Shown: positions 23,602 to 38,556 of the stretch, piece after piece
How the letters are laid out: every line of letters starts with the position of its first letter
Numbering within the stretch: the first letter of the stretch is position 1
The notes under the pieces: generated by a model
The model's database searches: none
What the model was told of the DNA's origin: nothing
The model's input: the letters and a program-made list of their open reading frames with translations, nothing else
Made by a program: the position numbers and the translations under genes
Assembly (NCBI GenBank): GCA_035482295.1
Contig: DATHQX010000222.1
Span: 24,911 to 88,910, forward strand
Length of the DNA stretch: 64,000 bases
Direction of reading: 5' to 3'
From: Verrucomicrobiia bacterium
Lineage (GTDB): Bacteria; Acidobacteriota; Terriglobia; Terriglobales; Acidobacteriaceae

Positions 23602-24108
23602 ATGAAACTAGACCGCAATCGTCGCTGTTGGCTCGCGGCCTACACGCGCTCGAATCACGAGCGACAAGTGGCGCGACAACTGGGTCAGAAGAATCTTGAA
23701 TATCTGCTGCCGACTTACCATCGCATGGTGCGCTGGACAGACAGGGTCAAGCGAGTCGAAATCCCTCTTTTTCCCAGCTACATTTTCGTGCATATCTGCG
23801 AATCGGAACGCGTTTCTCTACTGGAGACGGTCGGCATCCTCCATCTGGTTTCATCGGCAGGTGCGTTAGCCGTGCTTGCGGACGAGGACATTGCCCGTAT
23901 TCAGTCCTGTTGCCTGGGTTCAGGCGACGTTGAGCCTCATCCCTATCTCAGGATCGGGAACCGGGTTCGCGTAAAGCATGGCCCCTTCATCGGATGGGTG
24001 GGCACGCTGCTGGAAAAGCAGAACTCCCGCCGGCTCATCGTCTCCATCGATCAAATCATGAAGTCCATCTCCATCAACCTGCACGCCGCTGATGTCGAGC
24101 CACTGTAA
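23602..24108 (+). CDS. NusG-paralog transcription antiterminator (UpxY/RfaH-like; NGN plus KOW)
   Basis: WLAAYTRSNHERQVARQLGQKNLEYLLP...IPLFPSYIFVHI (NGN domain) and a C-terminal KOW (RIGNRVRVKHGPFIGWVGTLLEK). It is the first gene of the EPS locus, preceded by a non-coding region of about 330 nt. Confidence 0.8.
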   Translation: MKLDRNRRCWLAAYTRSNHERQVARQLGQKNLEYLLPTYHRMVRWTDRVKRVEIPLFPSYIFVHICESERVSLLETVGILHLVSSAGALAVLADEDIARIQSCCLGSGDVEPHPYLRIGNRVRVKHGPFIGWVGTLLEKQNSRRLIVSIDQIMKSISINLHAADVEPL

Positions 24109-24153
24109 CTGCTTCGAACAATCGTCGGGTGTTATCTCGGAAACCTAACTTCC

Positions 24154-25140
24154 ATGGGAACTCCTTCACGTTCTCTCTCGGTCTCTGCCGCGTCATCTCT
24201 AGGCACTGGAAATCATTCAAACCTTCTGACGAAGTTGTTGAGTCATGAGAGAGTGTTGGACGTTGGTATCGTCACCGCCTCCGTTTTTTTCGCCAGCGCT
24301 CTTCGGCAGCTGTTGAAAGCCGGGTATTCGCTCTCGTTAACTACGCTGTCTGCCGCTTGCTTTTCCCTGGTGTTGATTGTCCCCTTAGAGAACCACCTTG
24401 CGCACGAGCCATCGACGAGTCCCCTGAATATCCGGCGGACTGAGCATTCGTTGAGAGTGAGCTGCATAGCATGTGCGGGAGCAATGCTGACCTCTCAATG
24501 GATTGCTCCCTCAATGCCGCGGCTCCAATTCTGGCTACTTCTGGCGCCTACATTCATTGCTCTGACGCCCCAAAGCTCGAGGCTCGTCAACGTCAGCAAG
24601 CGATTGTTTGACCTGTTGTTAGGTAGTCTTGGCTTAGTTCCCTTGATCGCTTTGACGCCCTTGCTTGCACTCCTGGTAAAGCTCTCTTCCCGGGGGCCCG
24701 TGTTCTTCTCGCAGATCCGGGTTGGAAAAAATGGTCAATTGTTCCCGATATACAAATTCCGCACGATGTACTTGGACGCACCCAGGTACGGTTACTCGCC
24801 CAAAGGCAGTCGGGATCCTCGAGTGACGCCGACAGGAAGAGCGCTGCGTCGTTCTAAGCTGGACGAATTGCCGCAGCTGATCAACGTTTTGCTTGGCCAA
24901 ATGTCGCTGGTCGGGCCTCGACCGGAAATGCCATTCATCGTTGAGCAGTACACTGCGATTCAACGTCAACGGCTGGCCCTCACGCCCGGCATAACTGGGT
25001 TGTGGCAAATCAGCGAGCATCGGACCGCTCCCATTCATGAGCACCTGGAGTACGACTTTTATTACGCCGAACATCGCTCCATGATTTTGGATCTCGCGAT
25101 CATTTGCCGCACCGCATCGTGCCTCATCGGGAAGACTTGA
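24154..25140 (+). CDS. Initiating undecaprenyl-phosphate sugar-phosphotransferase (bacterial sugar transferase family, WbaP/EpsL-like)
   Basis: N-terminal TM segments, then KRLFDLLLG...SSRGPVFFSQIRVGKNGQLFPIYKFRTM...PRVTPTGRALRRSKLDELPQLINVLLGQMSLVGPRPE. Confidence 0.9.
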   Translation: MGTPSRSLSVSAASSLGTGNHSNLLTKLLSHERVLDVGIVTASVFFASALRQLLKAGYSLSLTTLSAACFSLVLIVPLENHLAHEPSTSPLNIRRTEHSLRVSCIACAGAMLTSQWIAPSMPRLQFWLLLAPTFIALTPQSSRLVNVSKRLFDLLLGSLGLVPLIALTPLLALLVKLSSRGPVFFSQIRVGKNGQLFPIYKFRTMYLDAPRYGYSPKGSRDPRVTPTGRALRRSKLDELPQLINVLLGQMSLVGPRPEMPFIVEQYTAIQRQRLALTPGITGLWQISEHRTAPIHEHLEYDFYYAEHRSMILDLAIICRTASCLIGKT

Positions 25141-25171
25141 ACTTTATTCATCAACTTCACCGACGTAGTAC

Positions 25172-27388
25172 TTGCTCCTCAGCGTTGAACCGACCCACCT
25201 AGTGAAAGCTAATTCAAACGAACAGTTGAGAATCCCTCAGCACACCGAGCGCGAGGAACTGCTCTTACCTGAGCTTTGGCGAATGCTGCGAATTCGCTGG
25301 CGCGTACTAGCGGCATGCGTCTCTCTGTGTTTGCTCCTGTCGATCCTGTACATAATCGTCCGCTCACCTCGCTACGAGGCGATTGCAGAGATCGAAGTCA
25401 GTCCGGTTGGCACCAATTCCATGGGGCTCGATGAACTAGCAACCCGGGTGCTGAATCCTTCCGACCCAACCATTCAGCTACAGAGTGCGGCAACGGTACT
25501 GCAAAGCAAAACCGTGGCTCTGGCCGTGATGCAGCAAACCCGGCTCGCTGAGAGGAAGGATTTTGCCGGCGCCTGGATTCAGCCAGCGGACACAGACGTC
25601 ATGGAGCTGTCACCCGAGATCCGCGATCACTTGCTCCGACGCTTTCAAAAGAACCTGAAAGTCGAGATTGTCCCCAAGACCGATATTCTGAGCGTGCAGT
25701 TTCGCACTACCGATCCAAAACTCGCGGCAGAAGTGGTCAACGCGACGGTGAGCTGCTATACGGAAAGGAATTTTCACAGCAGCTACGATGCTGCCAGCCA
25801 GGTAACGACCTGGCTTTCGGCGCAGATGGACGATCTCAAACTGAAAGCAAACCAGGCACAGGAAAAGCTGTCGGAATTACAAAAACGCCGAGGCCTGATC
25901 GGCGTCGATGAAACCGACAACATCATTACCGACAAGCTGAAGGACCTGAACGAGCAGCTGACCACCGCGGAATCGGACCGGATCGTGAAAGAGGCTCGGT
26001 ATCGGATCGCTGGCTCGGGCAATCCTGAATTGATCGCCTCCACCGTTCCCGAGCCGACGTTGCAGGTGTTGCGCTCACAGCAGGCGCAGTTGCGTGTCGA
26101 TTACGCCAAGCTCAGCACCAAGTTCGGAGAGGGATACCCGAAACTGGCGGAGTTGGGTAACGAGATGGCGCAAGTCGATGCCGCCATCCACGCTGAGTTG
26201 AAGAACCTGGCTGAGCGCTACAAGAACGAGTATCTGGCTGCCGCCAATGCGGAAAAAATGTTGCAGTCTAAGTTCGAGGAGCAGAAGCAAAAGGCCTACG
26301 ACTTGAATCAGGGAGCAGCCCAGTACGCCATACTCAAACACGAAGTCGAAACGACGCAGGACCTCTATCAGACCCTGCAGCTGAAGTTGAAGCAGGCTGG
26401 AATCATGGCGGGACTGGCTTCAGCAAATATCGGCATCGTCGAGCCTGCCCAGGTCCCGTCCGAACCGGTCGACCCCAGACCAATCCTTGACATCGGGCTG
26501 GGGCTGGGGTGTGGTGCGGTTCTTGGGCTTCTGACCGCCGCAGGCCTGGAAGCGCTGGACGCAACGGTGCGCAACGGCGAAGAGATCGAGTGCCTCACCT
26601 CTCTGCCAACCTTGGCTGAGATCCCACGTTTTGTCGCGAGAAAGCCAAGGCGTTATGCCGAGGCGGTTACTTCGAGAGCGTCCGACACACATTGGCAATT
26701 GGTCACCCATTATCAGCCTCAGTCGTCGTTTGCCGAATCCTATCGGTGCCTACGGACTTCACTCCTGCGCCTAGGAACTCGTCCGCCGAAGTTAGTGGTG
26801 GTTGTCAGTTGCCTCCCAGGCGAAGGAAAGACGGTCACCGCGATCAATTGTGCGGTTGTGTTGGCGCAGCAGGGGGCAAGGGTTCTCCTGGTCGACGCGG
26901 ACCTGCGCAAGCCATCGGTGCACGTAGCCTTCGGACTCCCGCAGAACCCCGGCTTGACTGCCATCCTGTCGGGTCGGTGCAAGGAAAGCGAAGCCGTCGC
27001 AACCTCGGAAGTTCTTCCCAACCTTTCAGTCTTGCCTGCCGGGGAGAACCGCCCCTTTCCCGCCGAGATGCTGGCATCCGTAGGCATGGCAGCGCTTCTT
27101 GAGGACTGGCGCTTGCGATACGACCACATCGTAATGGATACGGCTCCGATCTCCGTCTTTACGGACGCCGCAGTTGTGGGTTGTCAGGCCGATGCTGTTT
27201 TGGTCATAGCACGCTGGGGGACGACCACAAAATACGCACTGCGCCACGCGTGCGATCAGATGACTCGATCCGGCGCCAATCTCGCCGGAATCGTTTTGAC
27301 GGACATCGATCAGAACTACGACAACTCGTACTACCACCGATACGGGTATGGCTTCAGCCGATCAGATGCCAGGCACCTGGACAACTAG
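25172..27388 (+). CDS. Polysaccharide co-polymerase / BY-tyrosine kinase (Wzc/GumC-like, PCP-2a)
   Basis: Wzz-type N-terminal TM plus a long coiled-coil periplasmic region and a second TM. Cytoplasmic kinase with Walker A PGEGKTVTA, A' LLVDADLRKP, B IVMDTAP, and a C-terminal Tyr cluster NYDNSYYHRYGYGF. The start is uncertain (TTG 25172 or GTG 25202). Confidence 0.9.
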   Translation: MLLSVEPTHLVKANSNEQLRIPQHTEREELLLPELWRMLRIRWRVLAACVSLCLLLSILYIIVRSPRYEAIAEIEVSPVGTNSMGLDELATRVLNPSDPTIQLQSAATVLQSKTVALAVMQQTRLAERKDFAGAWIQPADTDVMELSPEIRDHLLRRFQKNLKVEIVPKTDILSVQFRTTDPKLAAEVVNATVSCYTERNFHSSYDAASQVTTWLSAQMDDLKLKANQAQEKLSELQKRRGLIGVDETDNIITDKLKDLNEQLTTAESDRIVKEARYRIAGSGNPELIASTVPEPTLQVLRSQQAQLRVDYAKLSTKFGEGYPKLAELGNEMAQVDAAIHAELKNLAERYKNEYLAAANAEKMLQSKFEEQKQKAYDLNQGAAQYAILKHEVETTQDLYQTLQLKLKQAGIMAGLASANIGIVEPAQVPSEPVDPRPILDIGLGLGCGAVLGLLTAAGLEALDATVRNGEEIECLTSLPTLAEIPRFVARKPRRYAEAVTSRASDTHWQLVTHYQPQSSFAESYRCLRTSLLRLGTRPPKLVVVVSCLPGEGKTVTAINCAVVLAQQGARVLLVDADLRKPSVHVAFGLPQNPGLTAILSGRCKESEAVATSEVLPNLSVLPAGENRPFPAEMLASVGMAALLEDWRLRYDHIVMDTAPISVFTDAAVVGCQADAVLVIARWGTTTKYALRHACDQMTRSGANLAGIVLTDIDQNYDNSYYHRYGYGFSRSDARHLDN

Positions 27389-27398
27389 GGGACGACAC

Positions 27399-28322
27399 AT
27401 GCACAACCTTCTTCGCAAGGCATGGTTCCTCATCGCTTGCGTAGTGGTCGTCGTTTGCCCGCTGAATAACGCGAATGCGCAGTCTCCTCTTCCACCAGAG
27501 GCAGCTCTCACGAGCAATGCTCTGTTGCTCGATGCCGGCGACCTCATTGAATTACAAGTGTTCGACACGCCTGAGCTTTCCGGCAAGCTTCGAGTCGACG
27601 ATCTCGGAGAGATTAGCCTTCCAGTGGGAGGCGCTATCAGCGTTAAAGGACTCACGGCAGAACAGGCTCAGTTCGCAGTCGAGGAGCGATTCCGCGAGAA
27701 GCAGATCCTCCGTAACCCCCATGTCGAGATTCTTGTTCTGGAGTACGCGACTCAGGGAGTGACTGTTACCGGAGAAGTAAAAGCGCCTGGCGTTTACCCT
27801 TGGGCGACAAAGCACACCGTGGCAGATTTCATTGCGGTTGCTGGAGGGGTTACGCCAACCGCATCGAGAACTGTAACGGTGAACCGCCGGAACCGCGAAC
27901 AGGTCATGACCTTCCAGTTAGGGAATTCCGCACAATTGCCTAGCGGAGCCGACATGCAGGTGCGACCAGGCGACCGCATCCAGGTCAAACGCGCCGGGGT
28001 GGTTTACGTTGTCGGCGACGTCGGCAGGCCTGGCGGCTATCTGGTCGACAACACGGACACCATTACGGTCCTGGAGGCACTGGCGCTGGCGCAAGGCGTA
28101 AACAAAACTGCGAAATCCGAGGCGAAGCTGATTCGTAATACCTCCGCCGGGCGAACCGAGTCCGACCTTTCGCTCAAGAAGATTCTTTCTAACCACGCAG
28201 CCGATCCCAAGCTTCAGGACGGAGACATCGTGTTTGTTCCGGTCAGCGGCGGCAAGCAATTCTCAGATAAAGGTGTCAGCGCCATCCTTCAAATGGCAGT
28301 GGGACTCGCAATTTGGCAATAA
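27399..28322 (+). CDS. Outer-membrane polysaccharide export protein (Wza-like; Poly_export plus SLBB)
   Basis: ATG 27399; signal peptide MHNLLRKAWFLIACVVVVVCPLNNANAQ; LDAGDLIELQVFDTPELSG...VDDLGEISLPVGGAISVKGLT; later GDRIQV..AGVVYVVGDV (SLBB). Confidence 0.9.
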   Translation: MHNLLRKAWFLIACVVVVVCPLNNANAQSPLPPEAALTSNALLLDAGDLIELQVFDTPELSGKLRVDDLGEISLPVGGAISVKGLTAEQAQFAVEERFREKQILRNPHVEILVLEYATQGVTVTGEVKAPGVYPWATKHTVADFIAVAGGVTPTASRTVTVNRRNREQVMTFQLGNSAQLPSGADMQVRPGDRIQVKRAGVVYVVGDVGRPGGYLVDNTDTITVLEALALAQGVNKTAKSEAKLIRNTSAGRTESDLSLKKILSNHAADPKLQDGDIVFVPVSGGKQFSDKGVSAILQMAVGLAIWQ

Positions 28323-28999
28323 GCAGCGTTCGAATAGAAGGACGGCTACCGAGGGGCGGGAGGTGGGTCGCGTTCTTTGGGCCTGACGGGGTCGGCAAGT
28401 CAGCCGTGATCGAGCGCTTGCAACAGACCTATAAACCCGCAGTCAGCGACACGCGCTGTTTTCACTTTCGACCTCACTTTCGTACACGTGGGGTTAATCG
28501 TCCACCAGTCTTGCAACCGCACTCGAACCCACCCCGTGGATTGTTGATATCGCTTTGTAAGTTGTTTTACTGGCTGGCGGACTGCTGGTTTGGCTACCTG
28601 GCGGCGGTCAGGCCCGTCCGAAGGCGATCGGGGCTGCTGTTGTTCGACCGATACTACCCGGATGTACTCGTGGATCCTGTGCGTTACCGGTTGCCAGAGC
28701 GGTCCCTACGATTTGCTCGATGGCTGATGGCGTTTACGCCTCAGCCTGACCTCTACATCCTGCTGGATGCGCCGGCCGACGTTGTCCAACGTCGCAAGGC
28801 GGAACTGACGTCTGACGAAGTACGGCGTCAGCGCGTTGCCTACCTTCGACTTTTTCAGAGTTTCAGCTCCCGATTGATCGTCAATGCCGAGCGCCCCGTC
28901 AACGAAGTTGCGCAGCGTATAGCTCTAGCTTTGTCTGACTGCGACGCTATACCTGTCGTGGTACCCGTCGAGCCTGTTTCGTGCCAGCCTTTGAAGTGA
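28313..28999 (+). CDS. P-loop kinase-like protein (thymidylate-kinase / dNK fold), function unknown
   Basis: Walker A FFGPDGVGKS, hydrophobic-strand-Asp LLLFDRY, and a LID-like LLDAPADVVQRRKAEL. The only in-frame start before the P-loop is TTG 28313, which overlaps the wza-like stop by 10 nt. Confidence 0.6.
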   Translation: MAISSVRIEGRLPRGGRWVAFFGPDGVGKSAVIERLQQTYKPAVSDTRCFHFRPHFRTRGVNRPPVLQPHSNPPRGLLISLCKLFYWLADCWFGYLAAVRPVRRRSGLLLFDRYYPDVLVDPVRYRLPERSLRFARWLMAFTPQPDLYILLDAPADVVQRRKAELTSDEVRRQRVAYLRLFQSFSSRLIVNAERPVNEVAQRIALALSDCDAIPVVVPVEPVSCQPLK

Positions 29000-31371
29000 T
29001 CCAAAAAATATTTTGTACATTGCCGCAGAGCCGGACTCGTAATCTACCGGCAACCCTCTTCGTGGTCTCCGGACCGGCGGGCCCACGATGGATCTTGCCG
29101 GCAGGACCAAACCTCAATCCGGTTTTGGCCAACTGGTCTCCCTATGGGATTAACTCACAGATCCTTTGGCGGGGGGTTCAGGTAGCCCAACGGGTGGGTC
29201 TGATGCGTTGGCTGCCCCGGGTCCAACGAGTGCATCTCGGCGATTTGTTGGGGATCGACTGGCAAGCTCTGGGCTGGAAAGGCAGTGCCCCACCGGTGCC
29301 CGTTATCTACGTTGGAACTCCCGGACCGCAACGGAAAGCTGCGATTCATCTCGTCGATCCGGCGAGTGGCGACTGCCCCATGGTGGTGAAGGTCCCTTTG
29401 CAACTCGCTGCCCAGACAGCAATCCTTCGCGAAGCTGCGGTGCTGACCGTCCTGGCCGAGGAACCCGACATCGCCGCACCGCAGCTGATTCACGTCGACG
29501 AGCAGCGCGCCGTCGCCACTCAAAGGTTTGTAACAGGCCGTCCGGGTAGTCGCCGCCTTCTGCCTGACTACCAGAATCTATTGCGTTCGCTGGTACTTTT
29601 GGACGAACACACCACGCTGGCCGGACAAGCGGAAAGTTGGCAATACCATCCTCTGTGGGACTACATGGAAGCCGCCGACTTCAACTTGTTGGCAGCTGCT
29701 CTGGCTGAGCAGGCGGATACGCGGAGCTTGCCGTCGTTTTGGGTTCATGGAGACTTTGCGCCGTGGAATATCCGTCATCGTCGTGGCCTCACTCCCGCTC
29801 TCATCGACTGGGAACAGGGACAGCGCGGCGGACTGCCTCTGCAGGATGCCTTTCACTTTCTACATATCCAAGATTTCCTGTTCCGAGAGCGAGCAAGGGC
29901 TCACTTCAAGGCGTTGGAGCCACTTGCGCAAAGCTTGGGTATCTCGTCAGAGATGTGCACGAAGCTGGAGATTGCTTACCTGTCTCGCAGCTACTTCACT
30001 TGCATGGAGTGGGGCGACCGTCGACGCGCTGACTACCTGCTGAAAAGTTTAAAGGCGCTCTTACCGGAATGTGGCCGCTCCTCCGCTTACCAGACACCAA
30101 AGCAAAACCACCGTCTACACCTCGTGACATCTAGAGCCAGCAACTACGGCGCCGTACGCGGAGAGCTGTTCTCGTGCCTGATTGCCGAGCTGAATCGTTC
30201 TGGCATTCCCTATTGCATTCTTAGCGGATATCTAAACGCGAGCGCGATCAATGCTTCCGACATTGATGTCACGTTCTGCCCCCGCGATCTCCACCGCGTT
30301 CCGGAATTGCTGGCGCGATGCGCTGCTTCTGCCGGAGCCCACCTAGTTCAATCGCTTCGCCACGAGACGTCCGCTTGTTACTTTGTCTTGGCGAAAACCC
30401 AAGGCAAGCACATCACCCACCTCGCCGTCGATTGCTACGGCGATTACCGACGTAAAGGTCGCTCTTGGCTAAAAGCCGACGATTTGCTGACGCGACGTCG
30501 TCCTTTCGACGGATTTTATCTTCCGAGCATTGGAGACGAGTTCACCTACCGCCTAGTTAAATTAGTTCTAAAACAATCGCTGAACCAAATCCATCTGAAG
30601 CATCTGCAACATTTGTTTGCACGCGACGCCGCTGCTTGCCAGCAGGCGATGGCCACCTTCTGGCCAGCCACCGCTGCCCAGATAGAAAAAGCAGTCGTCG
30701 AACAAGATTTTGATGGGTTACGCCGGCAATTGCGCGGTCTGGCGAAACAAGCGTGGCGATCGAAAAATGCCGACAACTTCTTACGCCGCACGATTCAGGG
30801 CATCCGGGAGATAGGCCGCGTCGTCCGTCGGATTCTCCTCCCCACAGGTATGCACGTCCGGGTTTCCGGAGATAGCCCCGGCCCGCTCCAGGAAGTGGCC
30901 GATCGAATCCTCTGCAGCCTTGAACCGGCATTTCGGCGTTCGACCAAAATGGTTTTTCCCAACTCTGTCAGGGGATTGTTAGCTGCAGTGCTGCACACAT
31001 CGATAGACCGGATGCGATCTACCGTGATTGTCGAAACCGTCGAGAGCGGATCCGGTATTCCACCGCAGGGGGTGTTTGCACAGTTTTATTTGAGACTATT
31101 CTCGCGACCTGACCTGACCCTCAATGTCCGCTCCGAGCGTAGCGTAGACAAAAGTACAGCTCCGGAAGACCGCACGGGAATCCATCGCCAAGTCACTCTG
31201 GATTCCGGACAAAGCCCCGAAGCTATGGCCGAGCAGGTCAACCTGGTAATAGTGGATTGGCTGGAAGCGCGCACGAGGAAACGCCTGCACCTGCGGGCAA
31301 CGACAATACAGCCATTGCCGAGATCCTTTGCACAGTCGGCCGGCAATTGCGATTCTGCGGGACTGGATTGA
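28981..31371 (+). CDS. Multidomain protein: APH/WaaP-type kinase-like domain, NTase-fold-like middle region and a degenerate P-loop-kinase-like C-terminal domain
   Basis: Kinase hallmarks MVVKVPL (Lys), ILREAAV (Glu), WVHGDFAPWN (HxDxxxxN, nt 29746) and LIDWE (nt 29803). The middle region GIPYCILSGYLNASAINASDIDVTF is pol-beta NTase-like. The C-terminus (aa ~620-765) aligns by eye to the upstream P-loop protein but has VSGDSPGP in place of Walker A. Alternative start GTG 28996 (GTGA overlap). The stop overlaps the next ATG (TGATG). Confidence 0.6.
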   Translation: MPAFEVIQKIFCTLPQSRTRNLPATLFVVSGPAGPRWILPAGPNLNPVLANWSPYGINSQILWRGVQVAQRVGLMRWLPRVQRVHLGDLLGIDWQALGWKGSAPPVPVIYVGTPGPQRKAAIHLVDPASGDCPMVVKVPLQLAAQTAILREAAVLTVLAEEPDIAAPQLIHVDEQRAVATQRFVTGRPGSRRLLPDYQNLLRSLVLLDEHTTLAGQAESWQYHPLWDYMEAADFNLLAAALAEQADTRSLPSFWVHGDFAPWNIRHRRGLTPALIDWEQGQRGGLPLQDAFHFLHIQDFLFRERARAHFKALEPLAQSLGISSEMCTKLEIAYLSRSYFTCMEWGDRRRADYLLKSLKALLPECGRSSAYQTPKQNHRLHLVTSRASNYGAVRGELFSCLIAELNRSGIPYCILSGYLNASAINASDIDVTFCPRDLHRVPELLARCAASAGAHLVQSLRHETSACYFVLAKTQGKHITHLAVDCYGDYRRKGRSWLKADDLLTRRRPFDGFYLPSIGDEFTYRLVKLVLKQSLNQIHLKHLQHLFARDAAACQQAMATFWPATAAQIEKAVVEQDFDGLRRQLRGLAKQAWRSKNADNFLRRTIQGIREIGRVVRRILLPTGMHVRVSGDSPGPLQEVADRILCSLEPAFRRSTKMVFPNSVRGLLAAVLHTSIDRMRSTVIVETVESGSGIPPQGVFAQFYLRLFSRPDLTLNVRSERSVDKSTAPEDRTGIHRQVTLDSGQSPEAMAEQVNLVIVDWLEARTRKRLHLRATTIQPLPRSFAQSAGNCDSAGLD

Positions 31372-32603
31372 TGGCAAGAGTTCTGCTGTCCGCTTATGCG
31401 TGCGAACCGGGGCGCGGATCAGAACCCGGAGTCGGCTGGAACTGGGCGACCGAGTTAGCCGAGCTTGGACATCACGTCACGGTAATTACTCGTGCCGATA
31501 ATCGAACGATGATCGAATCTCATTTCTTGCCGCCGAACCTGACATTCGTCTACTTTGACCTGCCCCGCTGGGTCCAGCGGTGGCGTGCCGGCCTTCGTGC
31601 GAAGGCTGCCTACTATGTGCTTTGGCAATGGTTCGCTGTCAGACACATCCGGCGGCTGTTTCCCTCGCCGCCATTTGATGTGGTCCACCACATCACTTAT
31701 GTCAGCGCACGGTATCCCAGCTTCATGGGATCCTTGGGCATACCGTTTTGGTTCGGTCCGGTCTCCGGTGGCGAAGCGGTCCCCCGTCCCCTTCGTTCCG
31801 GATTCTCGGCCAAGCAACGATTCAGGGAGTGGCTACGCGATGTCTCGAATTCCATGCTGCGCTTCGATCCGTTGGTGCGCAGAACCTTCCATCGTGCCTC
31901 GCGCATTCTGGTGACTCGAGATACAAGGCCGCTTCTCCCATCGAGTTGCCTAAGTAAGACTGATGTCCACTTGGCCGTCGGTCTGCCGGACGCGGAGTTG
32001 ACCTCCATGTCCAGGCTCTCGACGAATCAACCCTCTGAACTTCGCATGCTTTACATCGGACGCCTGCTGGAATGGAAGGGGGTTGACATTGCGTTGCTCG
32101 CGATGAGCCAAATTATCAAGGCGCGGCCTGACGTCCGGTTTACTATCATCGGTCAAGGTCCCGCTCGTTCCAGGCTGGAGAATCTATGCAGCGACCTTCA
32201 TCTGCAGGCCGTCGTGCATTGGATCGGATGGCAGCCGCAGCGGACCCTCGATGAACACTATTCCACATCAAACCTCCTGCTCTTTCCCAGCTTGCGCGAT
32301 TCCGGGGGAAGCGTAGTGCTCGAGGCCCTGGCACACGGTCTTCCTGTCTTGTGTACTGATCTTGGCGGTCCTGGAATCATCGTCGATGCCACATGCGGCC
32401 GAGTGTTGCCCACCGCTGGACGCGAACGAACAATTCTCTCCCTGGACATGGCCGACGCTGTGATCGAAGTTGTCTCCACACCCAACCTCCTGAAGTCCCT
32501 TTCTTATGGGGCTCGGGTTCGAGCACGGCAATTCAAATTCCGGGACTTGGCAGAAGCGGTTTACGCCGATCTTCTCCCGATGAAAGCACCCCAACAAGCG
32601 TGA
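31371..32603 (+). CDS. Glycosyltransferase family 4 (GT-B)
   Basis: MARVLLSAYACEPGRGSEPGVGWNWA... N-terminus and a C-terminal E-x7-E-like region (FPSLRDSGGSVVLEALAHGLPVLCTDLGGP). Confidence 0.85.
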   Translation: MARVLLSAYACEPGRGSEPGVGWNWATELAELGHHVTVITRADNRTMIESHFLPPNLTFVYFDLPRWVQRWRAGLRAKAAYYVLWQWFAVRHIRRLFPSPPFDVVHHITYVSARYPSFMGSLGIPFWFGPVSGGEAVPRPLRSGFSAKQRFREWLRDVSNSMLRFDPLVRRTFHRASRILVTRDTRPLLPSSCLSKTDVHLAVGLPDAELTSMSRLSTNQPSELRMLYIGRLLEWKGVDIALLAMSQIIKARPDVRFTIIGQGPARSRLENLCSDLHLQAVVHWIGWQPQRTLDEHYSTSNLLLFPSLRDSGGSVVLEALAHGLPVLCTDLGGPGIIVDATCGRVLPTAGRERTILSLDMADAVIEVVSTPNLLKSLSYGARVRARQFKFRDLAEAVYADLLPMKAPQQA

Positions 32604-33919
32604 CTACAGTCGCGACTCCATTTCCTGACTTCCTGTGTCCGGACGCGAGGTCATACTCTCGGCTCTTCGCATACCGGCTATGGCAGGCGATCATTCTTAT
32701 CTGTCTGTGGTCGATCGTCTTCCTGCCCGAATTTGCTCGTACGGACGACAACATTGCAAACCTGCTTCCTTACAGGAAAGTAGCAATCGGCTTCCGGTAC
32801 ATCGATCTCTTCGTGATTGTGATGGTCTTTTGCCATGTCGTCTGCCTTGGCTGCCTGCGTCACAGGCACATACATTTTCCCCGGCAACTGCTTGCGCCCG
32901 GGTGGGCGTTCCTGACGACCATTGCTATCGCTATCGCTTACGGAGCTCAACGCGGGGGCAGCAACTTCTTCTTTGACTGGCGCGGTTTGGGGCTGGGGAT
33001 CGGCCTGTTTTTCGTGTGGTCTTTCTGGTTACAGAACCGTGGCGATATCGCCTTTGCGATTCAGATATTCGCAGTCTACGCGGCTTTGCGAGTGGCAGGA
33101 ATCTTCGTACTGTACGCGTTGGGTTATGGCGACAATCTTTTTGGGATCGCCATCCCGGTTTTTGACGGCCCAATCCTGTCTTGCATCGTGTTTACCGGGT
33201 TATTGGCATTGAGTCAGCAGCAAGCCGCACAACGGGTCAAACGGCGACTCCCGTGGATCCTGCTTGCAGGGGCATCCTGTCTCCTAGTCCTGCTGTGCCT
33301 CCGGCGTACATATTGGGGAGAACTGGGAATTGGAGTTTGCATCCTGACACTTCTGCAGACCCGAAACCGTTGGCGAAAGTTTCTGTTCCTGGTTTTGAGC
33401 ATCGCTTTAGCCGCTGGAATCCTCGGCCCCAGCCTCTTGAGTCGTGTGCAAAGCCTGGACCCAACCAGCGACGACAATCAATTCAGCGCTGATAATGCGG
33501 ACCATGTCCACGACATCGCGGACGCGTGGGACCAGATACAGCTTTCGCCGTGGATGGGCATAGGGGTCGGCACCTCGTATTCGACATGGCACATCCGCAG
33601 ATGGAAGCCGGAGTCAGTCATGGTGCATAACGCTCCGCTGCATGTCTGGCTCAAGTACGGTCTGGCGGGGATGCTCTGCTATTTATGGTTTCACATCGCC
33701 TTGCTGCGATGGCTATACCGCCAGACAAAGAGAACTGATCGGGCGACTGCGTTCTTACAGGCGGGATTCGCGTACGTTGTTGCGCAGTTCATCATGACAC
33801 TTGGATTTGCGCCCTGGCCTTATTCTGAGCTCCAACTCACCGTTCTGCTGTCATTTATTTTGGCTGCGTCGATCGTAGCCGCGCGAACATCGGTTGCCGC
33901 AAATTATGGAACTCCCTAG
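32600..33919 (+). CDS. O-antigen polymerase/ligase-family membrane protein (Wzy-like)
   Basis: About 10-12 TM segments with a Wzy_C-like loop (...SYSTWHIRRWKPESVMVHNAPLHVWLKYGLAGML). GTG 32600 overlaps the GT4 stop (GTGA); the upstream part of the ORF lies inside the GT4 gene. Confidence 0.75.
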   Translation: MTTVATPFPDFLCPDARSYSRLFAYRLWQAIILICLWSIVFLPEFARTDDNIANLLPYRKVAIGFRYIDLFVIVMVFCHVVCLGCLRHRHIHFPRQLLAPGWAFLTTIAIAIAYGAQRGGSNFFFDWRGLGLGIGLFFVWSFWLQNRGDIAFAIQIFAVYAALRVAGIFVLYALGYGDNLFGIAIPVFDGPILSCIVFTGLLALSQQQAAQRVKRRLPWILLAGASCLLVLLCLRRTYWGELGIGVCILTLLQTRNRWRKFLFLVLSIALAAGILGPSLLSRVQSLDPTSDDNQFSADNADHVHDIADAWDQIQLSPWMGIGVGTSYSTWHIRRWKPESVMVHNAPLHVWLKYGLAGMLCYLWFHIALLRWLYRQTKRTDRATAFLQAGFAYVVAQFIMTLGFAPWPYSELQLTVLLSFILAASIVAARTSVAANYGTP

Positions 33920-34766
33920 CTTTTCGGTCATTACGCCTTCGTACAACAGCGCTGTGTTCATCGAAGATGCGATCGGTAGTGTCGCGCGGCAAGAAGGCGT
34001 CGACGTCGAACACGTCGTAATCGACGCTGCGTCAAGCGACGGCACTATAGAGATCGTCAAGCGGCATGAGGTGCAATGGATCTCCGAACCCGATCGTGGT
34101 CAATCCGACGCGATTAACAAAGGTTTTCTGCGCGCAAGCGGTGATCTGGTCGGCTGGTTGAACGCGGACGACTACTACCTACCCGAGGGTTTGAGGGCCA
34201 TCGCGCTTGCCGCTCAACAACATCCCGAGGCGGACATCTTTTATGGCGACTGCGTCTTCGTAGACAGCGTTGGTAACATCCTGCGGTCGAAAGTTGAGCA
34301 TGAGTTCGATCGATCAGTGTTAATGCGGTTTGGCTGTTATATTCCCTCCACATCCACCTTCTTCCGGCGGCGTGTCATCGAAGCCGGTCACCTGCTGAAT
34401 TGCGACTACCGTGTGTGTATGGACTTCGAATACTTTGCCCGCCTGGCGCACGCTGGTTTCAAGTTCCAGTACGTTCCCAGGTTCATAGCCGCTTTCCGAT
34501 GGCACGGCGGCAATGTCAGCATCCGAAATATGACCAGGCGCGCACAAGAAAGAGAGATGGTTCAACGATCTTTCGGCGGCACTGATTCTGCCGTGGAATT
34601 CGACTCGTGGACTGCAACTCTCTATCGCGCCAAGCGGCTGCTTCTTAAGGTTTGGAGCGGAAACCTCGATCGCGAACTCCGAATCAGGCAAATGATAGGC
34701 GAGAACACCCGCTGGACCGCCGATCCGACAGGCCGGAAAACGTGCATAAACCTAGCGTCCTGGTGA
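33906..34766 (+). CDS. Glycosyltransferase family 2
   Basis: FSVITPSYNSAVFIEDAIGSVARQEGVDVEHVVIDAASSDGT...NADDYY (DxD-like) is typical GT2. Confidence 0.9.
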   Translation: MELPSFSVITPSYNSAVFIEDAIGSVARQEGVDVEHVVIDAASSDGTIEIVKRHEVQWISEPDRGQSDAINKGFLRASGDLVGWLNADDYYLPEGLRAIALAAQQHPEADIFYGDCVFVDSVGNILRSKVEHEFDRSVLMRFGCYIPSTSTFFRRRVIEAGHLLNCDYRVCMDFEYFARLAHAGFKFQYVPRFIAAFRWHGGNVSIRNMTRRAQEREMVQRSFGGTDSAVEFDSWTATLYRAKRLLLKVWSGNLDRELRIRQMIGENTRWTADPTGRKTCINLASW

Positions 34767-35914
34767 TACACAATCATTATCAGCAGAGCGGTGGCGAAGA
34801 CACCGTGGTTAGGGCCGAAGTTGACCTGCTCCGGCGCGCCGGTCACCGGGTCGTGCTGTACACCCGACAGAATGCCGAGATTGCCCACTACGGTTCGCTG
34901 CGCAAATCTCTTCTGTTTTTCACAACCAGTTGGGCCGGCACGGCGTACTCCGAAATTTGCGCTCTCATCCGTAAGGAAAAACCCGACGTCGCCCATTGCC
35001 ATAACTTTCTGCCTTTGGTGAGCCCTGCCGCCCACTACGCGTGCGGAACAGCAGGCGTTCCCGTGTTGCAAACCCTTCATAACTATCGGCTGCTCTGCCC
35101 TTCGGGTACGTTTTTCCAGAACGGCCAGCGCTGTTCAACTTGCGGCGGCTGCCCGGTGCGCGGCATATTACGTGGGTGTTATCGGCATTCTCACCTGCAG
35201 ACCGGCGCCGTCTCTCTGATGCTGGCCAGCCATGGCGCAATTGGTACGTGGAAGCGCCTGGTCGACGCCTATATTGCTCCCAGCCGGTTCTGCCGTGACA
35301 CCTTCGTACGAGCTGGGTGGTCGCCGGCAAAAATATATTGCAAACCTAATTTTCTGCCGTCTGACCCCGGTCAGCGTCGCGGCAGCGGCGAATATGCTCT
35401 CTTCGTGGGAAGGCTCAGCCCCGAGAAAGGCGTCCTGGAACTGTTCGAGGCCTGGAGGCATCTGTCCGACATTCCGCTCCTTTTCGCGGGTGACGGTCCG
35501 CTCCATGATCAGCTTGGCTGTTTGCTCGCCGCCACAAAATTGCCGATCAAGCTCTTGGGTCGTCTCAGCTCAGAAGACACGATCTCCTGCATCAAAGGGG
35601 CGCGTTTCCTGATTTTCCCGAGCCAGTGGCACGAACCGTTTGGCATGGGACTGCTGGAAGCCGCCGCCTGTGGTGTTCCCGCTATCGCTTCACGAATTGG
35701 AGCGATTCCTGAAGTTGTCGACGACCGCCGCACCGGCTTGCTCTTCGATCCTGACGACTGCGAAGAATTAGCCCAACAGGTTCGCTGGGCCTGGACCCAC
35801 CCCGCCGCAATGGAGGAGATGGGCTTAGCAGCTCGAGCGCGCTACCTGCAGTCTTATACCTCAGAAAAAAACTACCAAAGACTGATGGAGATCTATCACG
35901 CTCTCCTGAACTAG
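34742..35914 (+). CDS. Glycosyltransferase family 4
   Basis: PSVLVIHNHYQQSGGEDTVVRAEVDLLRRAGHRV...; C-terminal FPSQWHEPFGMGLLEAAACGVPAIASRIGAIPEVV. The start is uncertain: GTG 34742 is preferred, and the ORF is open from 34652. Confidence 0.85.
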   Translation: MHKPSVLVIHNHYQQSGGEDTVVRAEVDLLRRAGHRVVLYTRQNAEIAHYGSLRKSLLFFTTSWAGTAYSEICALIRKEKPDVAHCHNFLPLVSPAAHYACGTAGVPVLQTLHNYRLLCPSGTFFQNGQRCSTCGGCPVRGILRGCYRHSHLQTGAVSLMLASHGAIGTWKRLVDAYIAPSRFCRDTFVRAGWSPAKIYCKPNFLPSDPGQRRGSGEYALFVGRLSPEKGVLELFEAWRHLSDIPLLFAGDGPLHDQLGCLLAATKLPIKLLGRLSSEDTISCIKGARFLIFPSQWHEPFGMGLLEAAACGVPAIASRIGAIPEVVDDRRTGLLFDPDDCEELAQQVRWAWTHPAAMEEMGLAARARYLQSYTSEKNYQRLMEIYHALLN

Positions 35915-35938
35915 AGGCATGACGAAATATTCCGATCG

Positions 35939-36631
35939 ATGAAGTGCTTCACCTACCTGGGCCGTGCATTCGTTCTAATGCTGTTGAGCGCACCAATGGC
36001 AAGACCTTGCGCGGCGCAGGCTCAAACAAATCCGGACGATGCCACCACGCCATCTTTCGATGGGCAGAACCTGCCGTCACTTTTTACTTCGGCGGATCGA
36101 CCTGCTTTCGTGGAAGTAGACGGCTTGGTCGACGCACGGACGGAAACCAACGTGTTACAGCTATCGGACATCCGTCCAAACCTTGGCGAGGACGGCAGGG
36201 CCACTCCGGTTGCAAGGCCTGCACTGGCATTTCGAGAGACGAATCAACTTGTCGCCGCGACATCCTGGAGCCCGCGGCGATCGGCACCTGCAACGGTTAT
36301 CACAGTGGAACCAACGCTAGGTTCGACCGCTCCGGGCACTACAACGTCGATCCTGCCAGCGCCATCGCTATCCGGCGCGGCTAACACGGATCAATATCTG
36401 GGGACTGGATTTCTCGGGCCAGACGATTCGGTTCTCCATTCTCGGAAACGCCGCCTGGAAGACGCAAAGCGTCGAAGGCGAACAGCCACTCTGGAAGCTC
36501 AAAACCGTCGCCAGTGCATTGAGCATGGGCTTATAGGATCCGACTGCGGACCAACATTCGAGAGCGCCCTGCCATCGGGCCGGCTCTCTGCCGACGGCGG
36601 TGCGCCAGGTTCGATATCGTTCCAGCACTAA
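35939..36631 (+). CDS. Secreted hypothetical protein (EPS locus)
   Basis: Signal peptide MKCFTYLGRAFVLMLLSAPMARPCAAQA; Ala/Thr/Pro-rich body; basic C-terminal segment RKRRLEDAKRRRR. I recognise no family. Confidence 0.45.
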   Translation: MKCFTYLGRAFVLMLLSAPMARPCAAQAQTNPDDATTPSFDGQNLPSLFTSADRPAFVEVDGLVDARTETNVLQLSDIRPNLGEDGRATPVARPALAFRETNQLVAATSWSPRRSAPATVITVEPTLGSTAPGTTTSILPAPSLSGAANTDQYLGTGFLGPDDSVLHSRKRRLEDAKRRRRTATLEAQNRRQCIEHGLIGSDCGPTFESALPSGRLSADGGAPGSISFQH

Positions 36632-36695
36632 TTGTTTTTAACCGGTAGTTCCCTTTCTCCAATACATCTCCACCGCAAATAAGAGGCCATCATTC

Positions 36696-37697
36696 ATGAA
36701 ATCGAAAACTCGTGTGTTAGTCACCGGAGCAGGCGGCTTCATCGGCCATCATCTCGTAAAGCGCCTCAAGCAGGAAGGCTATTGGGTAAGAGGCGTGGAT
36801 ATTAAGAAACCGGAATTTGAGCCGACCGTTGCGGATGAATTTCAGCTTCTCGATCTGAGATCTATGGAAAACGCCCTTCAGGCAACGGACTCAATCGAGC
36901 TGGTATTTGCACTTGCCGCTGACATGGGTGGGATAGGCTACATCACCGCACTACTGGCTCAAATCGCGCGTAACAATGTCCTCATCAACGCCAATACTCT
37001 GGAAGCAGCCCGAATCAACGGCGTCCGTCGTCTGTTGTATTCTTCTTCGGCCTGCGTTTACGCCGGATACAAACAAAACGTCACTGACCTCACCCCGTTA
37101 AAAGAGGAGGACGCGCATCCTGCCGATCCGGAGCCGGGCTACGGCTGGGAGAAACTGTTCACCGAACAACTCTGCAAGTACTACAAGCACGATTTCGATC
37201 TCGAAATCCGTATCGTCCGTTTCCACAATGTTTACGGGCCTCTTGGTACGTATGAAGGGGGAAAGGAAAAAGCTCCAGCGGCAATCTCCCGCAAAGTTGC
37301 GCTGGTTGCCGATCACGGAGAGATCGAGATCTGGGGCGATGGCCAACAAACCAGATCATTCATGTTTATTTCCGACTGCGTTGAAGGCCTGATGAGACTG
37401 ATGGCCAGTGACTACCGTGAACCCCTGAACCTTGGCACTGAAGAGATGGTTAGCGTGGACCAGCTGGTGGATAAAATCTGCGACGTCGCCGGCAAGCGGC
37501 TTACCAAGCGTCACGAGCTGAATCGTCCCCAGGGGGTGCGCGGACGCAACAGCGACAATTCCCGCTTGCGCCGGGTACTTGGCTGGGAGCCGACCGTTCC
37601 CCTTCGTGATGGGCTTGCAATTACTTATCGCTGGATCGAGGGGGAACTCCAGAAAGCCGGCCGCGTGGAAGCTGCGCAAGTCTATGCCTCCCACTAG
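36696..37697 (+). CDS. NAD-dependent epimerase, GDP-mannose 3,5-epimerase-like (extended SDR)
   Basis: VLVTGAGGFIGHHL; DEFQLLDLRSMEN; LAADMGGIGYI; EAARINGV; SSACVYAGYKQ; YGWEKLFTEQLCKYY; RFHNVYGP.GTYEGGKEKAPAA; WGDGQQTRSF.FI.DCVEG; GVRGRNSDN. These blocks closely track the plant GME sequence as I remember it, including the Cys (SSAC) and Lys (GGKEK) acid/base residues. Confidence 0.8.
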   Translation: MKSKTRVLVTGAGGFIGHHLVKRLKQEGYWVRGVDIKKPEFEPTVADEFQLLDLRSMENALQATDSIELVFALAADMGGIGYITALLAQIARNNVLINANTLEAARINGVRRLLYSSSACVYAGYKQNVTDLTPLKEEDAHPADPEPGYGWEKLFTEQLCKYYKHDFDLEIRIVRFHNVYGPLGTYEGGKEKAPAAISRKVALVADHGEIEIWGDGQQTRSFMFISDCVEGLMRLMASDYREPLNLGTEEMVSVDQLVDKICDVAGKRLTKRHELNRPQGVRGRNSDNSRLRRVLGWEPTVPLRDGLAITYRWIEGELQKAGRVEAAQVYASH

Positions 37698-38499: not shown

Positions 38500-38525
38500 C
38501 CAGAGCAGTTGGCGTCTCTTTCCGC

Positions 38526-38556
38526 GCGGACCTCGCCTGAGGTCCGCCTTTTTTTT
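38526..38556 (+). terminator. Rho-independent terminator closing the EPS locus
   Basis: Perfect 8-bp GC-rich stem GCGGACCT (38526-33) / AGGTCCGC (38540-47), a 6-nt loop, then C plus T8 (38549-56). Confidence 0.8.

Follow-up and report, generated by a model that had tools for sequence, protein, structure and literature searches.

Within the 64,000-nucleotide window, an exopolysaccharide (EPS) operon carries two adjoining genes, ORF A and ORF B, an uncharacterised enzyme set that recurs beside one particular glycosyltransferase in many bacterial phyla. An ORF check of the window placed ORF A (TTG start, 228 aa) at 28313-28999 and ORF B (GTG start, 796 aa) at 28981-31371, flanked by genes that bear out the EPS context claimed in the original prediction:

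23602-28322, + strand: upstream operon genes, whole block
23602-24108, + strand: UpxY-family antiterminator
24154-25140, + strand: phosphoglycosyl transferase (PGT)
25172-27388, + strand: Wzc-like PCP with tyrosine kinase
27348-28322, + strand: Wza-like exporter
31371-32603, + strand: GT4 glycosyltransferase (GT4a), the module's partner conserved across phyla
32393-33919, + strand: Wzy_C-domain polymerase-like membrane protein (Pfam Wzy_C), its true start probably near 32600
33894-38557, + strand: GT2, GT4b, 230-aa ORF, epimerase/dehydratase and WecG/TagA-family GT
35939-36631, + strand: the 230-aa ORF, without assigned function
38526-38557: terminator-like hairpin and T-run after the WecG/TagA-family GT

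The TTG start of ORF A falls within the 3′ end of wza, ORF A and ORF B overlap at GTGA (28996-28999), and the stop of ORF B overlaps the ATG of GT4a at TGATG (31369-31373), all as had been claimed. GC content is uniform, and about 50 acidobacterial species preserve the synteny of the pair. This conservation, the uniform GC content and junctions that permit translational coupling support ORF A and ORF B as a native part of the operon, in keeping with the earlier view that they are not an inserted cassette.

Domain make-up of ORF A and ORF B

ORF A is a TMPK-like P-loop kinase with the following features:

28313-28999, + strand: TMPK-like P-loop kinase, 228 aa (family profile against PDB thymidylate kinases)
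28379-28402, + strand: Walker A GPDGVGKS, aa 23-30
28463-28474, + strand: HFRP
aa 108-114, + strand: LLLFDRY
28643-28663, + strand: FDRYYPD
aa 151-162, + strand: LDAPADVVQRRK
28790-28804, + strand: LID-like RRKAE

The motifs on which this assignment was first proposed are all present, and the ORF A family profile matches PDB thymidylate kinases at E = 1e-8, with 42 invariant columns in an alignment of 34 ORF A homologs. In its Walker A GxDGxGK[ST], DRY motif and basic LID segment, ORF A agrees with the thymidylate kinase/NMP-kinase fold (PF02223), but it scores below the Pfam cut-off (24.9 vs 27) and the NCBIfam dTMP-kinase equivalog cut-off (21 bits vs 83.25). By contrast with thymidylate kinases, its family has the substrate-binding segment replaced by HFRP, PH, KLxYWLxDCW and LVDPxRYRLP, always lies in polysaccharide loci and is usually fused to an NTase-like domain.

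ORF B contains three domains, the second preceded by a linker:

28981-30060, + strand: aa 1-360, Trp-rich N-terminal extension, then APH-type kinase (Pfam APH, Foldseek)
29389-29391, + strand: Lys of VKV, K137
aa 151: Glu of REA, E151
29746-29769, + strand: HGDFAPWN, aa 256-263
29803-29814, + strand: IDWE, aa 275-278
30073-30129, + strand: disordered interdomain linker, aa 365-383 (AF2 pLDDT < 50)
30133-30825, + strand: putative Pol-beta NTase-like core and helical bundle, aa 385-615 (AF2, Foldseek)
aa 415-432: span of the SGY...SDIDVTF motif
30211-30231, + strand: YCILSGY, middle domain
30256-30270, + strand: SDIDV, middle domain
within 30424-30447, + strand: D484, middle domain
30826-31290, + strand: degenerate TMPK-like (pseudo-kinase) domain, aa 616-770 (hhalign against the ORF A family)
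30841-30888, + strand: former P-loop region PTGMHVRVSGDSPGPL, C-terminal domain
aa 628-635: VSGDSPGP
aa 709-712: RPDL

The intact APH-type kinase core claimed for ORF B is confirmed by a Pfam APH score of 38.1 bits (cut-off 23.2), and the catalytic residues K137, E151, H256, D258, N263, D276 and E278, which include the HxD...N and D-x-E positions whose conservation had been in question, are invariant both in 50 acidobacterial sequences and in a 15-sequence alignment across phyla. In Foldseek, the domain matched APH(4)-Ia, MphH and APH(2'') at E = 7e-7, with Bud32/PRPK also among the matches. ORF B thus scores above the gathering cut-off of the APH/choline-kinase family (PF01636; APH(4)-Ia, MphH, APH(2''), MTR kinase, LicA), with which it shares the bilobal kinase fold and the invariant Lys, Glu, HxDxxxxN and metal-binding Asp. 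Unlike known members, however, the module's APH branch is very divergent, its cross-phylum profile finding solved members only at E >= 5e-4; in ORF B the domain has a Trp-rich N-terminal extension of ~100 aa and is fused to two further domains, in polysaccharide loci. Both ORF A and ORF B lack transmembrane segments and have a pI of about 10.

The linker has a pairwise identity of 18%, compared with about 50% in the flanking domains. The middle domain was modelled confidently as an alpha-beta core (AF2 pLDDT 87.6, pTM 0.83), and like the Pol-beta superfamily (Pol beta/mu palm, CCA-adding enzyme, KNTase/ANT, LicD/fukutin) it has a G-x10-DxD motif with a third Asp on the following sheet; across phyla, D427 and D429 of this triad are invariant and D484 almost so. 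All top Foldseek matches belong to the Pol-beta superfamily (best matches Pol beta/mu, CCA-adding enzyme, RelP, Tut1/Cid1 and OAS, E = 0.02-0.2), but none reaches E <= 1e-3, no Pfam NTase or other Pfam model was found to cover the domain, and PF14907 matched one of 13 family members, at E = 0.13. The proposed pol-beta NTase holds only in part: the triad and the identity of the matches weakly suggest, at the level of the fold, a Pol-beta nucleotidyltransferase-like domain.

The C-terminal domain had been aligned with ORF A by eye and called its pseudo-kinase paralog, and the profile comparison suggested at the time bears this out, with hhalign aligning the ORF A family to it at 97.5% probability and E = 7.6e-12; like the matches of the ORF A profile to thymidylate kinases and of the APH domain to Pfam, this is far from anything chance would give. 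Twelve 450-aa proteins have intact kinase halves with which the domain lines up collinearly, but it lacks GxxGxGK[ST], the HLRP..PH..KLxYF segment, DRYYHD and RKxE. The P-loop is degenerate in 107/107 ORF B homologs carrying the anchor motif, and the pairwise identity of 35% is lower than in the other ORF B domains.

A 450-aa protein family and the conserved neighbourhood

The C-terminal half of ORF B aligns end to end with a ~450-aa protein that comprises an NTase-like domain and an intact kinase and forms a family of 1,588 representative clusters; the kinase half of the Microbulbifer member is 38% identical to ORF A (E = 6e-43). These alignments show ORF B to be a fusion of a predicted active APH-fold kinase with a degenerate copy of this widespread protein; in Acidobacteriota, the fused kinase copy has, as read from its motifs, lost its ATP site, and the separate, intact ORF A would supply that activity. 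No model in Pfam, NCBIfam or PADLOC, and no paper, was found that describes the domain combination, and the earlier statement that no characterised system has it stands. As for the middle and C-terminal parts of ORF B, they do not represent an ad hoc assembly but the degenerate copy of the 450-aa protein.

Outside Acidobacteriota, the unit is made up of three genes: one for the 450-aa protein, one for an APH kinase of ~370 aa and one for a GT4 glycosyltransferase. A Wzy-like gene is usually close by. Of 79 genome loci, 68 had an A-like gene within 3 kb, 72 had the GT4a ortholog no more than 4 kb from the APH gene, and 78 contained a polysaccharide gene. The linkage spans Acidobacteriota, Nitrospinota, Desulfobacterota, Cyanobacteria and Alpha-, Beta- and Gammaproteobacteria, and Streptomyces gave matches that are more distant. 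A Wzy_C or EpsG-type gene adjoins the module, or sits inside it, in loci of Microbulbifer, Leisingera and Streptomyces. The original prediction had looked to wza and wzc as conserved partners, but across phyla this role falls to the specific GT4 and a Wzy-like gene.

Natural fusions of A and B occur (P0055, P0074, P0081), as do the order NTase-like-kinase-APH and fusions of NTase-like and kinase domains with a Wzx flippase or an O-acetyltransferase-type Hexapep, and of polysaccharide deacetylase with the NTase-like domain. The fusion orders other than A+B point to a membrane-proximal enzyme decorating the repeat unit. Some lineages (L058, Streptomyces) lack the NTase-like domain while retaining the two kinases and the GT4, and it is dispensable there.

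Proposed function of the module

The module probably serves to introduce phosphate-based chemistry into the sugar repeat unit. The role put forward earlier, in which the polymer, the lipid carrier or a substituent would be phosphorylated or nucleotidylylated, is still plausible. Taking these observations together, we tentatively propose (probability about 0.38) that ORF A and ORF B form a single enzyme module, belonging natively to a Wzy-type polysaccharide pathway, and that this module phosphorylates the lipid-linked repeat unit in an ATP-dependent manner. The dead kinase domain would keep its fold and dock ORF A, by analogy with the dimerisation of TMPK-type kinases, bringing all activities into one soluble, basic, membrane-peripheral complex. 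This complex would work from the cytoplasmic side of the membrane on the undecaprenyl-diphosphate-linked repeat unit, at the sugar that the co-conserved GT4 handles or beside it. O-phosphorylation of a sugar hydroxyl would fall to the APH domain, and the TMPK-like kinase may add a second phosphate, either to the resulting phosphomonoester or at another site, as suggested by its DRY motif and many invariant Arg/Lys, typical of enzymes with an anionic acceptor. Where present, the NTase-like domain may cap or activate the phosphate with NMP, and the modified unit would then be flipped and polymerised by the adjacent Wzy.

This proposal is consistent with the invariant catalytic residues of the APH domain and ORF A, the pseudo-kinase/ORF A homology, the A+B and other fusions, the linkage to GT4 (72/79) and polysaccharide genes (78/79), and two basic proteins free of transmembrane segments. 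Among P-loop kinases, LpxK has a lipid-linked sugar as its substrate; WaaP and KdkA, protein-kinase-like kinases of LPS core sugars, belong to the same superfamily as the APH domain, are encoded in glycan biosynthesis loci and act at the cytoplasmic face with glycosyltransferases. WbdD shares these traits and, having a protein-kinase fold, phosphorylates polyprenol-linked O-antigen at the cytoplasmic membrane (PMC3482155). By contrast, no module protein matched Kdo/WaaP (PF06293) at E <= 1 in the Pfam scan, WbdD, which is fused to a methyltransferase, works in ABC-transporter pathways, and none of the three kinases is paired with a TMPK-like kinase or NTase-like domain. Against phosphorylation of the repeat unit stand the weak support for the NTase-like fold and its loss in some lineages, the lack of any Wzx found in this operon, Wzx fusions that could reflect mere gene adjacency and, to our knowledge, no documented phosphate-containing EPS in these organisms.

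Three activities also exceed simple phosphorylation, and a multi-step small-molecule pathway would fit them better. The main rival, which we consider possible but doubtful, is that the module synthesises a phospho-activated donor, to be used by the adjacent GT4 or by a different transferase: the APH-fold kinase would phosphorylate a free sugar or alcohol, the NTase-like domain would join the product to NMP to give an NDP-linked donor, and the TMPK-like kinase would add one more phosphate, whether a 3'-phosphate like that of PAPS or that added by the MeOPN pathway enzyme Cj1415, or one converting monophosphate to diphosphate. Anomeric sugar kinases are found among APH-fold enzymes (NahK, AmgK, MtnK and maltokinase share the fold with choline kinase LicA), the fusion of the three catalytic domains in every order suggests channelling between consecutive steps, the fixed link to one GT4 ortholog is what one would expect of a dedicated unusual donor, and the DRY motif suits a phosphorylated or nucleotide acceptor. 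LicA/LicC/LicD (phosphocholine), Cj1418/1416/1415 (MeOPN) and PAPS synthase, multi-step phospho-substituent pathways, offer the same logic of kinase, NTase and P-loop kinase in a surface-glycan locus, and Fkp/HldE a further analogy; they differ in using other protein families for each step, a likeness of analogy and not homology, and no head-group biosynthesis or transferase genes (LicD, Cj1421) were detected at this locus. Donor synthesis sits poorly with the lineages in which the two kinases and the GT4 occur without the NTase-like domain, with an operon devoid of transporter or other salvage genes, and with fusions to Wzx and glycan-decorating enzymes, which fit a membrane-face modifier better; moreover, we know of no NDP-sugar pyrophosphorylase with a Pol-beta fold.

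It is improbable that the APH-fold kinase and/or ORF A are protein kinases phosphorylating PGT, Wzc, GT or Wzy to control output, with the pseudo-kinase domain as scaffold. The APH fold does lie within the protein-kinase-like superfamily, Foldseek also matched Bud32/PRPK, the pseudo-kinase domain is kept, and kinases and pseudo-kinases, such as EcpK, are known from Wzx/Wzy pathways; but structurally the domain comes closest to small-molecule kinases (hygromycin, macrolide, aminoglycoside, MTR), protein regulation does not typically involve a TMPK fold or a Pol-beta NTase-like domain, and the module accompanies GT4 and Wzy even without Wzc or Wza nearby. Least plausible is an inserted resistance-like pair (APH and ANT-like), a defence island or an ordinary dTMP kinase in ORF A, a reading favoured by homologs named 'aminoglycoside phosphotransferase family protein' and 'thymidylate kinase' and by a Pfam GT4-conflict match of GT4a, yet largely refuted by synteny and opposed by the conserved position in Acidobacteriota, polysaccharide linkage, uniform GC content, no PADLOC match, the sub-threshold scores of ORF A and generic GT4 matches stronger than the GT4-conflict one.

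Organisation of the operon

Both genes of the pair, ORF A and ORF B, were found on the + strand where the original prediction had placed them, all the peptide motifs it had quoted were located in their translations, and the overlapping junctions it had described were seen at wza/A, A/B (GTGA) and B/GT4a (TGATG), GT4a being the GT4 glycosyltransferase gene directly after ORF B. The operon forms a single + strand unit at window positions 23602-38557, in which the genes abut or overlap, with flat GC content throughout the A/B region and one strong terminator-like hairpin after it, at 38526.

Features of the operon and its surroundings (window positions)
8561-11506, - strand: 981-aa CarboxypepD_reg plus outer-membrane beta-barrel protein (TonB-dependent-receptor-like), upstream of the operon
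13840-17448, + strand: 1,202-aa protein in which an ABC-2 membrane domain is fused to a peptidase M1 domain, upstream of the operon
23602-24108, + strand: UpxY-family antiterminator, first operon gene; NusG paralog, NCBIfam 118 bits against a cut-off of 100
Operon gene 2, + strand: polyprenyl glycosylphosphotransferase
Operon gene 3, + strand: Wzc-like co-polymerase (PCP-2a) with tyrosine kinase
Operon gene 4, + strand: Wza-like exporter (OPX), directly before ORF A and ORF B
28313-28999, + strand: ORF A, TTG start, 228 aa
28981-31371, + strand: ORF B, GTG start, 796 aa
After ORF B, + strand: GT4a, Wzy_C protein, GT2 and GT4b, in that order
35939-36631, + strand: 230-aa ORF between GT4b and the epimerase/dehydratase
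Last operon genes, + strand: epimerase/dehydratase, then WecG/TagA-family GT
38729-40138, + strand: sigma-54-dependent response regulator, directly after the operon terminator

The operon holds the PGT, PCP-2a (Wzc), OPX (Wza), Wzy and glycosyltransferases of the Wzx/Wzy-dependent EPS type, and is flanked by housekeeping genes (EPSP synthase, thiolase, trigger factor, ClpX and Lon). No Wzx (MOP-family) flippase was matched among the scanned operon ORFs and flanking large ORFs, which make up part of the window ORFs, and the acidobacterial flippase of this pathway must be encoded elsewhere or be of an unrecognised type. Other phyla differ, in that the flippase adjoins, or is fused to, a protein combining NTase-like and kinase domains (P0276, P0341). 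Pfam and NCBIfam scans of the 230-aa ORF were empty, and its tblastn matches lay only in the closest relatives (L001-L003). The two large ORFs upstream of the operon showed no relation to the two-kinase module.

The TTG of ORF A, ten bases inside the end of the wza-like gene, is the sole start codon that retains the P-loop. Since the P-loop is kept only from this TTG at 28313, inside wza, automated annotation probably truncates the ORF A gene. A public gene call (P0121, 197 aa, 99% identity to ORF A) spans only 86% of ORF A, an extent that agrees with a start at the GTG of V32, and such a start removes Walker A (28313-28408 region). At the A/B junction, the overlapping GTGA occupies 28996-28999 and the GTG at 28981 offers an alternative start, and at the B/GT4a junction (TGATG, 31369-31373) the stop of ORF B and the next ATG have one base in common.

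Domain architecture of ORF A and ORF B

ORF A had been assigned to the thymidylate-kinase/dNK-fold P-loop kinases, a call that was borne out by an alignment of 34 family members (A4) with 42 invariant columns, including Walker A G23-S30, D112-R113-Y114 and R161-K162 of the basic LID, and by the family profile, which matched solved thymidylate kinases in the PDB (E = 1e-8 to 1e-5). ORF A itself scored 24.9 bits against Pfam Thymidylate_kin (PF02223), under the cut-off of 27 that some of its homologs pass, and 21 bits against the dTMP-kinase equivalog TIGR00041, for which the cut-off is 83.25. The TMK substrate-binding segment is replaced by family-specific motifs (HFRP, PH, KLxYWLxDCW and LVDPxRYRLP in the 34-member alignment). 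Together, the sub-cut-off scores, invariant columns and profile matches suggest that ORF A is apparently an active kinase of the TMPK fold and, judged from its sequence, not an orthodox dTMP kinase; an ordinary dTMP kinase was ruled out by synteny, the gene being found in polysaccharide loci throughout, with APH and GT4 as neighbours, and by the Pfam and TIGR00041 scores. HFRP..KLxYWLxDCW was also considered as a membrane anchor and rejected, with no transmembrane segment by hydropathy and an alignment to the TMK NMP-binding region.

For the N-terminal third of ORF B, an intact APH-type core of the fold used by LPS core kinases had been predicted. The core stood, with 38.1 bits against Pfam APH (PF01636, cut-off 23.2) over aa 126-298, compared with 40.5 bits for the Microbulbifer homolog, and a complete catalytic set of beta3 Lys, alphaC Glu, HxDxxxxN loop and metal-binding Asp. 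K137, H256/D258/N263 and D276/E278 were invariant or nearly so in 50 acidobacterial homologs, with E151 at 90% or more, and all of these residues were strictly invariant in a 15-sequence cross-phylum alignment. Kdo/WaaP (PF06293) gave no match in ORF B, for which a Pfam scan at E <= 1 returned PF01636 alone. The AF2 model (pLDDT 86) has a bilobal protein-kinase-like fold, with a Foldseek match to APH(4)-Ia (E = 7e-7, target-normalised TM-score 0.59) and further matches to macrolide and aminoglycoside kinases, MTR kinase and Bud32. The cross-phylum APH profile (15 sequences) matched solved kinases weakly (ACAD11 kinase domain, hygromycin kinase and choline kinase), and we regard the putative ORF B kinase as a deep branch of the superfamily.

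Foldseek with the full-length ORF B model returned APH-domain matches only, and the middle domain (aa 385-615) was modelled on its own (pLDDT 87.6, pTM 0.83). Pfam, NCBIfam and PDB-sequence profile searches with this domain gave no true match, PF14907 being matched by one of 13 family members at E = 0.13. The Pol-beta NTase signature noted earlier was borne out in part: S415-G416-x10-D427-x-D429 and the third carboxylate D484 conform to the G[SG]-x9-13-DxD pattern, and the best Foldseek matches all fall in the Pol-beta superfamily (Pol beta/mu, CCA-adding enzyme, RelP, Tut1/Cid1 and OAS), but their values were weak (E = 0.02-0.2, none at 1e-3, TM-scores ~0.3) and Pfam offered nothing. Across phyla, D427 and D429 are invariant, D484 is nearly so, and the Gly is mostly but not always retained. 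We take an NTase-like fold to be likely for this domain, and catalysis by it to be possible. Its profile found 1,588 representative clusters at E <= 1e-3 among 1.84 billion, most of them 430-480 aa long.

The C-terminal domain (aa 616-770) had been taken by eye for a pseudo-kinase paralog of ORF A, and a profile-profile comparison with the ORF A family found the two homologous (hhalign probability 97.5%, E = 7.6e-12, 147 columns). Pairwise BLASTP was not significant (E = 0.047), and PDB-sequence profile searches of the middle and C-terminal domains gave spurious matches only. Walker A (GxxxxGK[ST]) was missing in all 107 of the 107 ORF B homologs where the anchor motif was locatable, together with, in ORF B, the DRY motif, the LID RK and the substrate segment. 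This domain evolves faster than the others in ORF B, with a mean pairwise identity of 35% against 50-53%.

ORF B aa 385-796 aligned collinearly, over the whole length and including the linker R..R..PTG[LM]xV, with twelve members of a widespread 450-aa family that joins an NTase-like domain to an intact TMPK-like kinase; relative to these, ORF B has lost GPDGxGKS, the HLRP..PH..KLxYF segment, DRYYHD and RKxE. The collinear alignment, the lost motifs and the resemblance of ORF A to the kinase half of the Microbulbifer 450-aa protein (38% identity, E = 6e-43) show that in ORF B an APH kinase is joined to a 450-aa-protein copy that has decayed, while the live kinase domain is encoded on its own as ORF A. 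Natural A+B fusions occur (P0055, P0074 and P0081), and other fusions combine NTase-like, kinase and APH domains; Wzx flippase, NTase-like and kinase domains; NTase-like, kinase and Hexapep acetyltransferase domains; and polysaccharide deacetylase with an NTase-like domain.

Distribution and gene neighbourhood

Relatives were searched with one genome per species (372 relatives), and 79 loci were fetched. The gene order of the whole window was kept in ~50 Acidobacteriaceae, Korobacteraceae and Binatia loci. Outside that group the system consists of three genes, encoding a protein of ~450 aa, an APH kinase of ~370 aa and a GT4 of ~410 aa that is the ortholog of GT4a, with a Wzy_C gene usually next and homologs of GT4b, WecG and the epimerase often close by. 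This form occurs in Nitrospinota, Desulfobacterota, Alpha-, Beta- and Gammaproteobacteria and Cyanobacteria, including the cultured Microbulbifer guangxiensis. An A-like gene lay within 3 kb of the APH gene in 68/79 loci, GT4a within 4 kb of it in 72/79, and some polysaccharide gene was present in 78/79, counts that are not independent because many loci come from related MAGs. The argument for polysaccharide linkage is carried by the cross-phylum cases.

On plasmids of cultured Leisingera, the module genes are bordered by a flippase, an EpsG-type polymerase and a rhamnose operon. In the plasmid of Leisingera sp. M658 (NZ_CP083552.1, L081), remote cassette homologs at 4183-16083 have an rfbCBDA operon for rhamnose and a LuxI/LuxR pair next to them, an arrangement that resembles the Roseobacter-group 'biofilm plasmids' (PMC5030684), whose description makes no mention of the cassette genes. 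On a Streptomyces plasmid, a GT4 and a gene of the O-antigen-ligase family flank an A-like gene (32% identity, E = 7e-17); since the match of the 'phosphotransferase' to the ORF B kinase is confined to the region of the catalytic loop (E = 7e-5), this locus lends the cassette weak support. RefSeq names the Leisingera and Streptomyces module genes 'phosphotransferase' and 'hypothetical protein'.

An APH-only paralog with 30-36% identity to ORF B aa ~25-370, and without the fused domains, was seen in other acidobacterial polysaccharide loci (L060-L063 and L069-L074; Acidobacteriaceae, Terracidiphilus MAGs). There the A-like gene, if any, lies several kb off on the opposite strand, suggesting a second, looser version of the system.

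Function of the module

The module comprises two kinases of unrelated folds, predicted from their residues to be catalytically intact, an NTase-like domain whose acidic triad is intact and a dead kinase domain. Its linkage to a GT4 and a Wzy-type polymerase is obligatory, and the proteins of ORF A and ORF B are soluble and basic. We put at about 0.85 the probability that it is an active phosphotransferase module devoted to polysaccharide biosynthesis. An unrelated or housekeeping origin of the gene pair has a very small chance in view of the synteny and of dTMP-kinase scores under the cut-offs; synteny and scores also ruled out an inserted resistance cassette, and a defence or conflict-system origin was rejected when PADLOC gave no matches.

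As to the substrate, we tentatively favour, at somewhat short of even odds, a reading in which A/B acts at the cytoplasmic face and takes the lipid-linked repeat unit as its target. The pseudo-kinase domain of ORF B would dock ORF A, and the resulting complex would carry out phosphoryl chemistry tied to the sugar handled by GT4a. This reading is favoured because both kinase folds have precedents, because fusions link the module to a flippase and to glycan-decorating enzymes, and because the NTase-like domain is dispensable in some lineages. WaaP, KdkA and LpxK are precedents for such action on lipid-linked glycans. A further one is WbdD, a kinase that acts on a lipid-linked glycan at the cytoplasmic face (PMC3482155). 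The main rival, which we consider doubtful, is a three-step synthesis of a phospho- or nucleotide-activated donor or substituent. It has analogues in LicA/C/D, the MeOPN enzymes, PAPS synthase and Fkp/HldE. Mechanisms other than those listed here are rather unlikely, and a regulatory protein-kinase role for the module is quite improbable.

Building on action at the lipid-linked repeat unit, we speculate, with the odds against it, that the loci represent a hitherto unrecognised cross-phylum pathway of phosphorus chemistry on glycans. The repeat unit of a conserved Wzy-dependent polysaccharide, while lipid-linked, would receive a diphosphate, a phosphodiester or a phosphate capped by a nucleotide from two unrelated kinases, in most cases together with a Pol-beta-type NTase, the acidobacterial dead kinase serving as a docking site for its live paralog. 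If true, this would define a new enzyme family, based on the NTase-like domain with its ~1,600 clusters, together with a new P-loop class of glycan kinases.

None of the folds is unfamiliar, and enzymes that phosphorylate glycans are already known as a kind. No description of the domain combination, the 450-aa family, the pseudo-kinase arrangement or the cross-phylum cassette was found in the literature or family libraries searched. In NCBIfam, neither ORF B nor the 450-aa protein nor the stand-alone APH kinase had a model, ORF A gave only sub-threshold dTMP-kinase matches, and the N-terminal (NTase-like) domain of the 450-aa family had no family model in the searched libraries. An odd gene pair has become a defined, widespread cassette of APH kinase, TMPK-like kinase with or without an NTase-like domain, specific GT4 and Wzy, directly testable because cultured Microbulbifer and Leisingera carry it, as does Streptomyces in a more remote form. 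Should the module phosphorylate or nucleotidylate the repeat unit, it would represent a new glycan-modifying enzyme family, an annotation could be given to ~1,600 representative clusters now named 'hypothetical protein', polymer charge and metal-binding properties might be explained, and the pair would offer a clear case of a pseudo-enzyme kept beside its active paralog. In soil and peat, Acidobacteriota rank with the most abundant bacteria, and the exopolysaccharides they make affect soil aggregation and carbon retention; to our knowledge, very little has been described of the chemistry of these polymers.

UpxY regulators are best known from Bacteroides capsule loci; here a UpxY-family gene heads an acidobacterial EPS operon and is kept in ~50 related loci. 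The sigma-54-dependent response regulator at 38729-40138 resembles the PEP-CTERM-box regulator TIGR02915 (325 bits, under the 502.6 cut-off). Its synteny extends to many related loci, and it may be a regulator of the operon.
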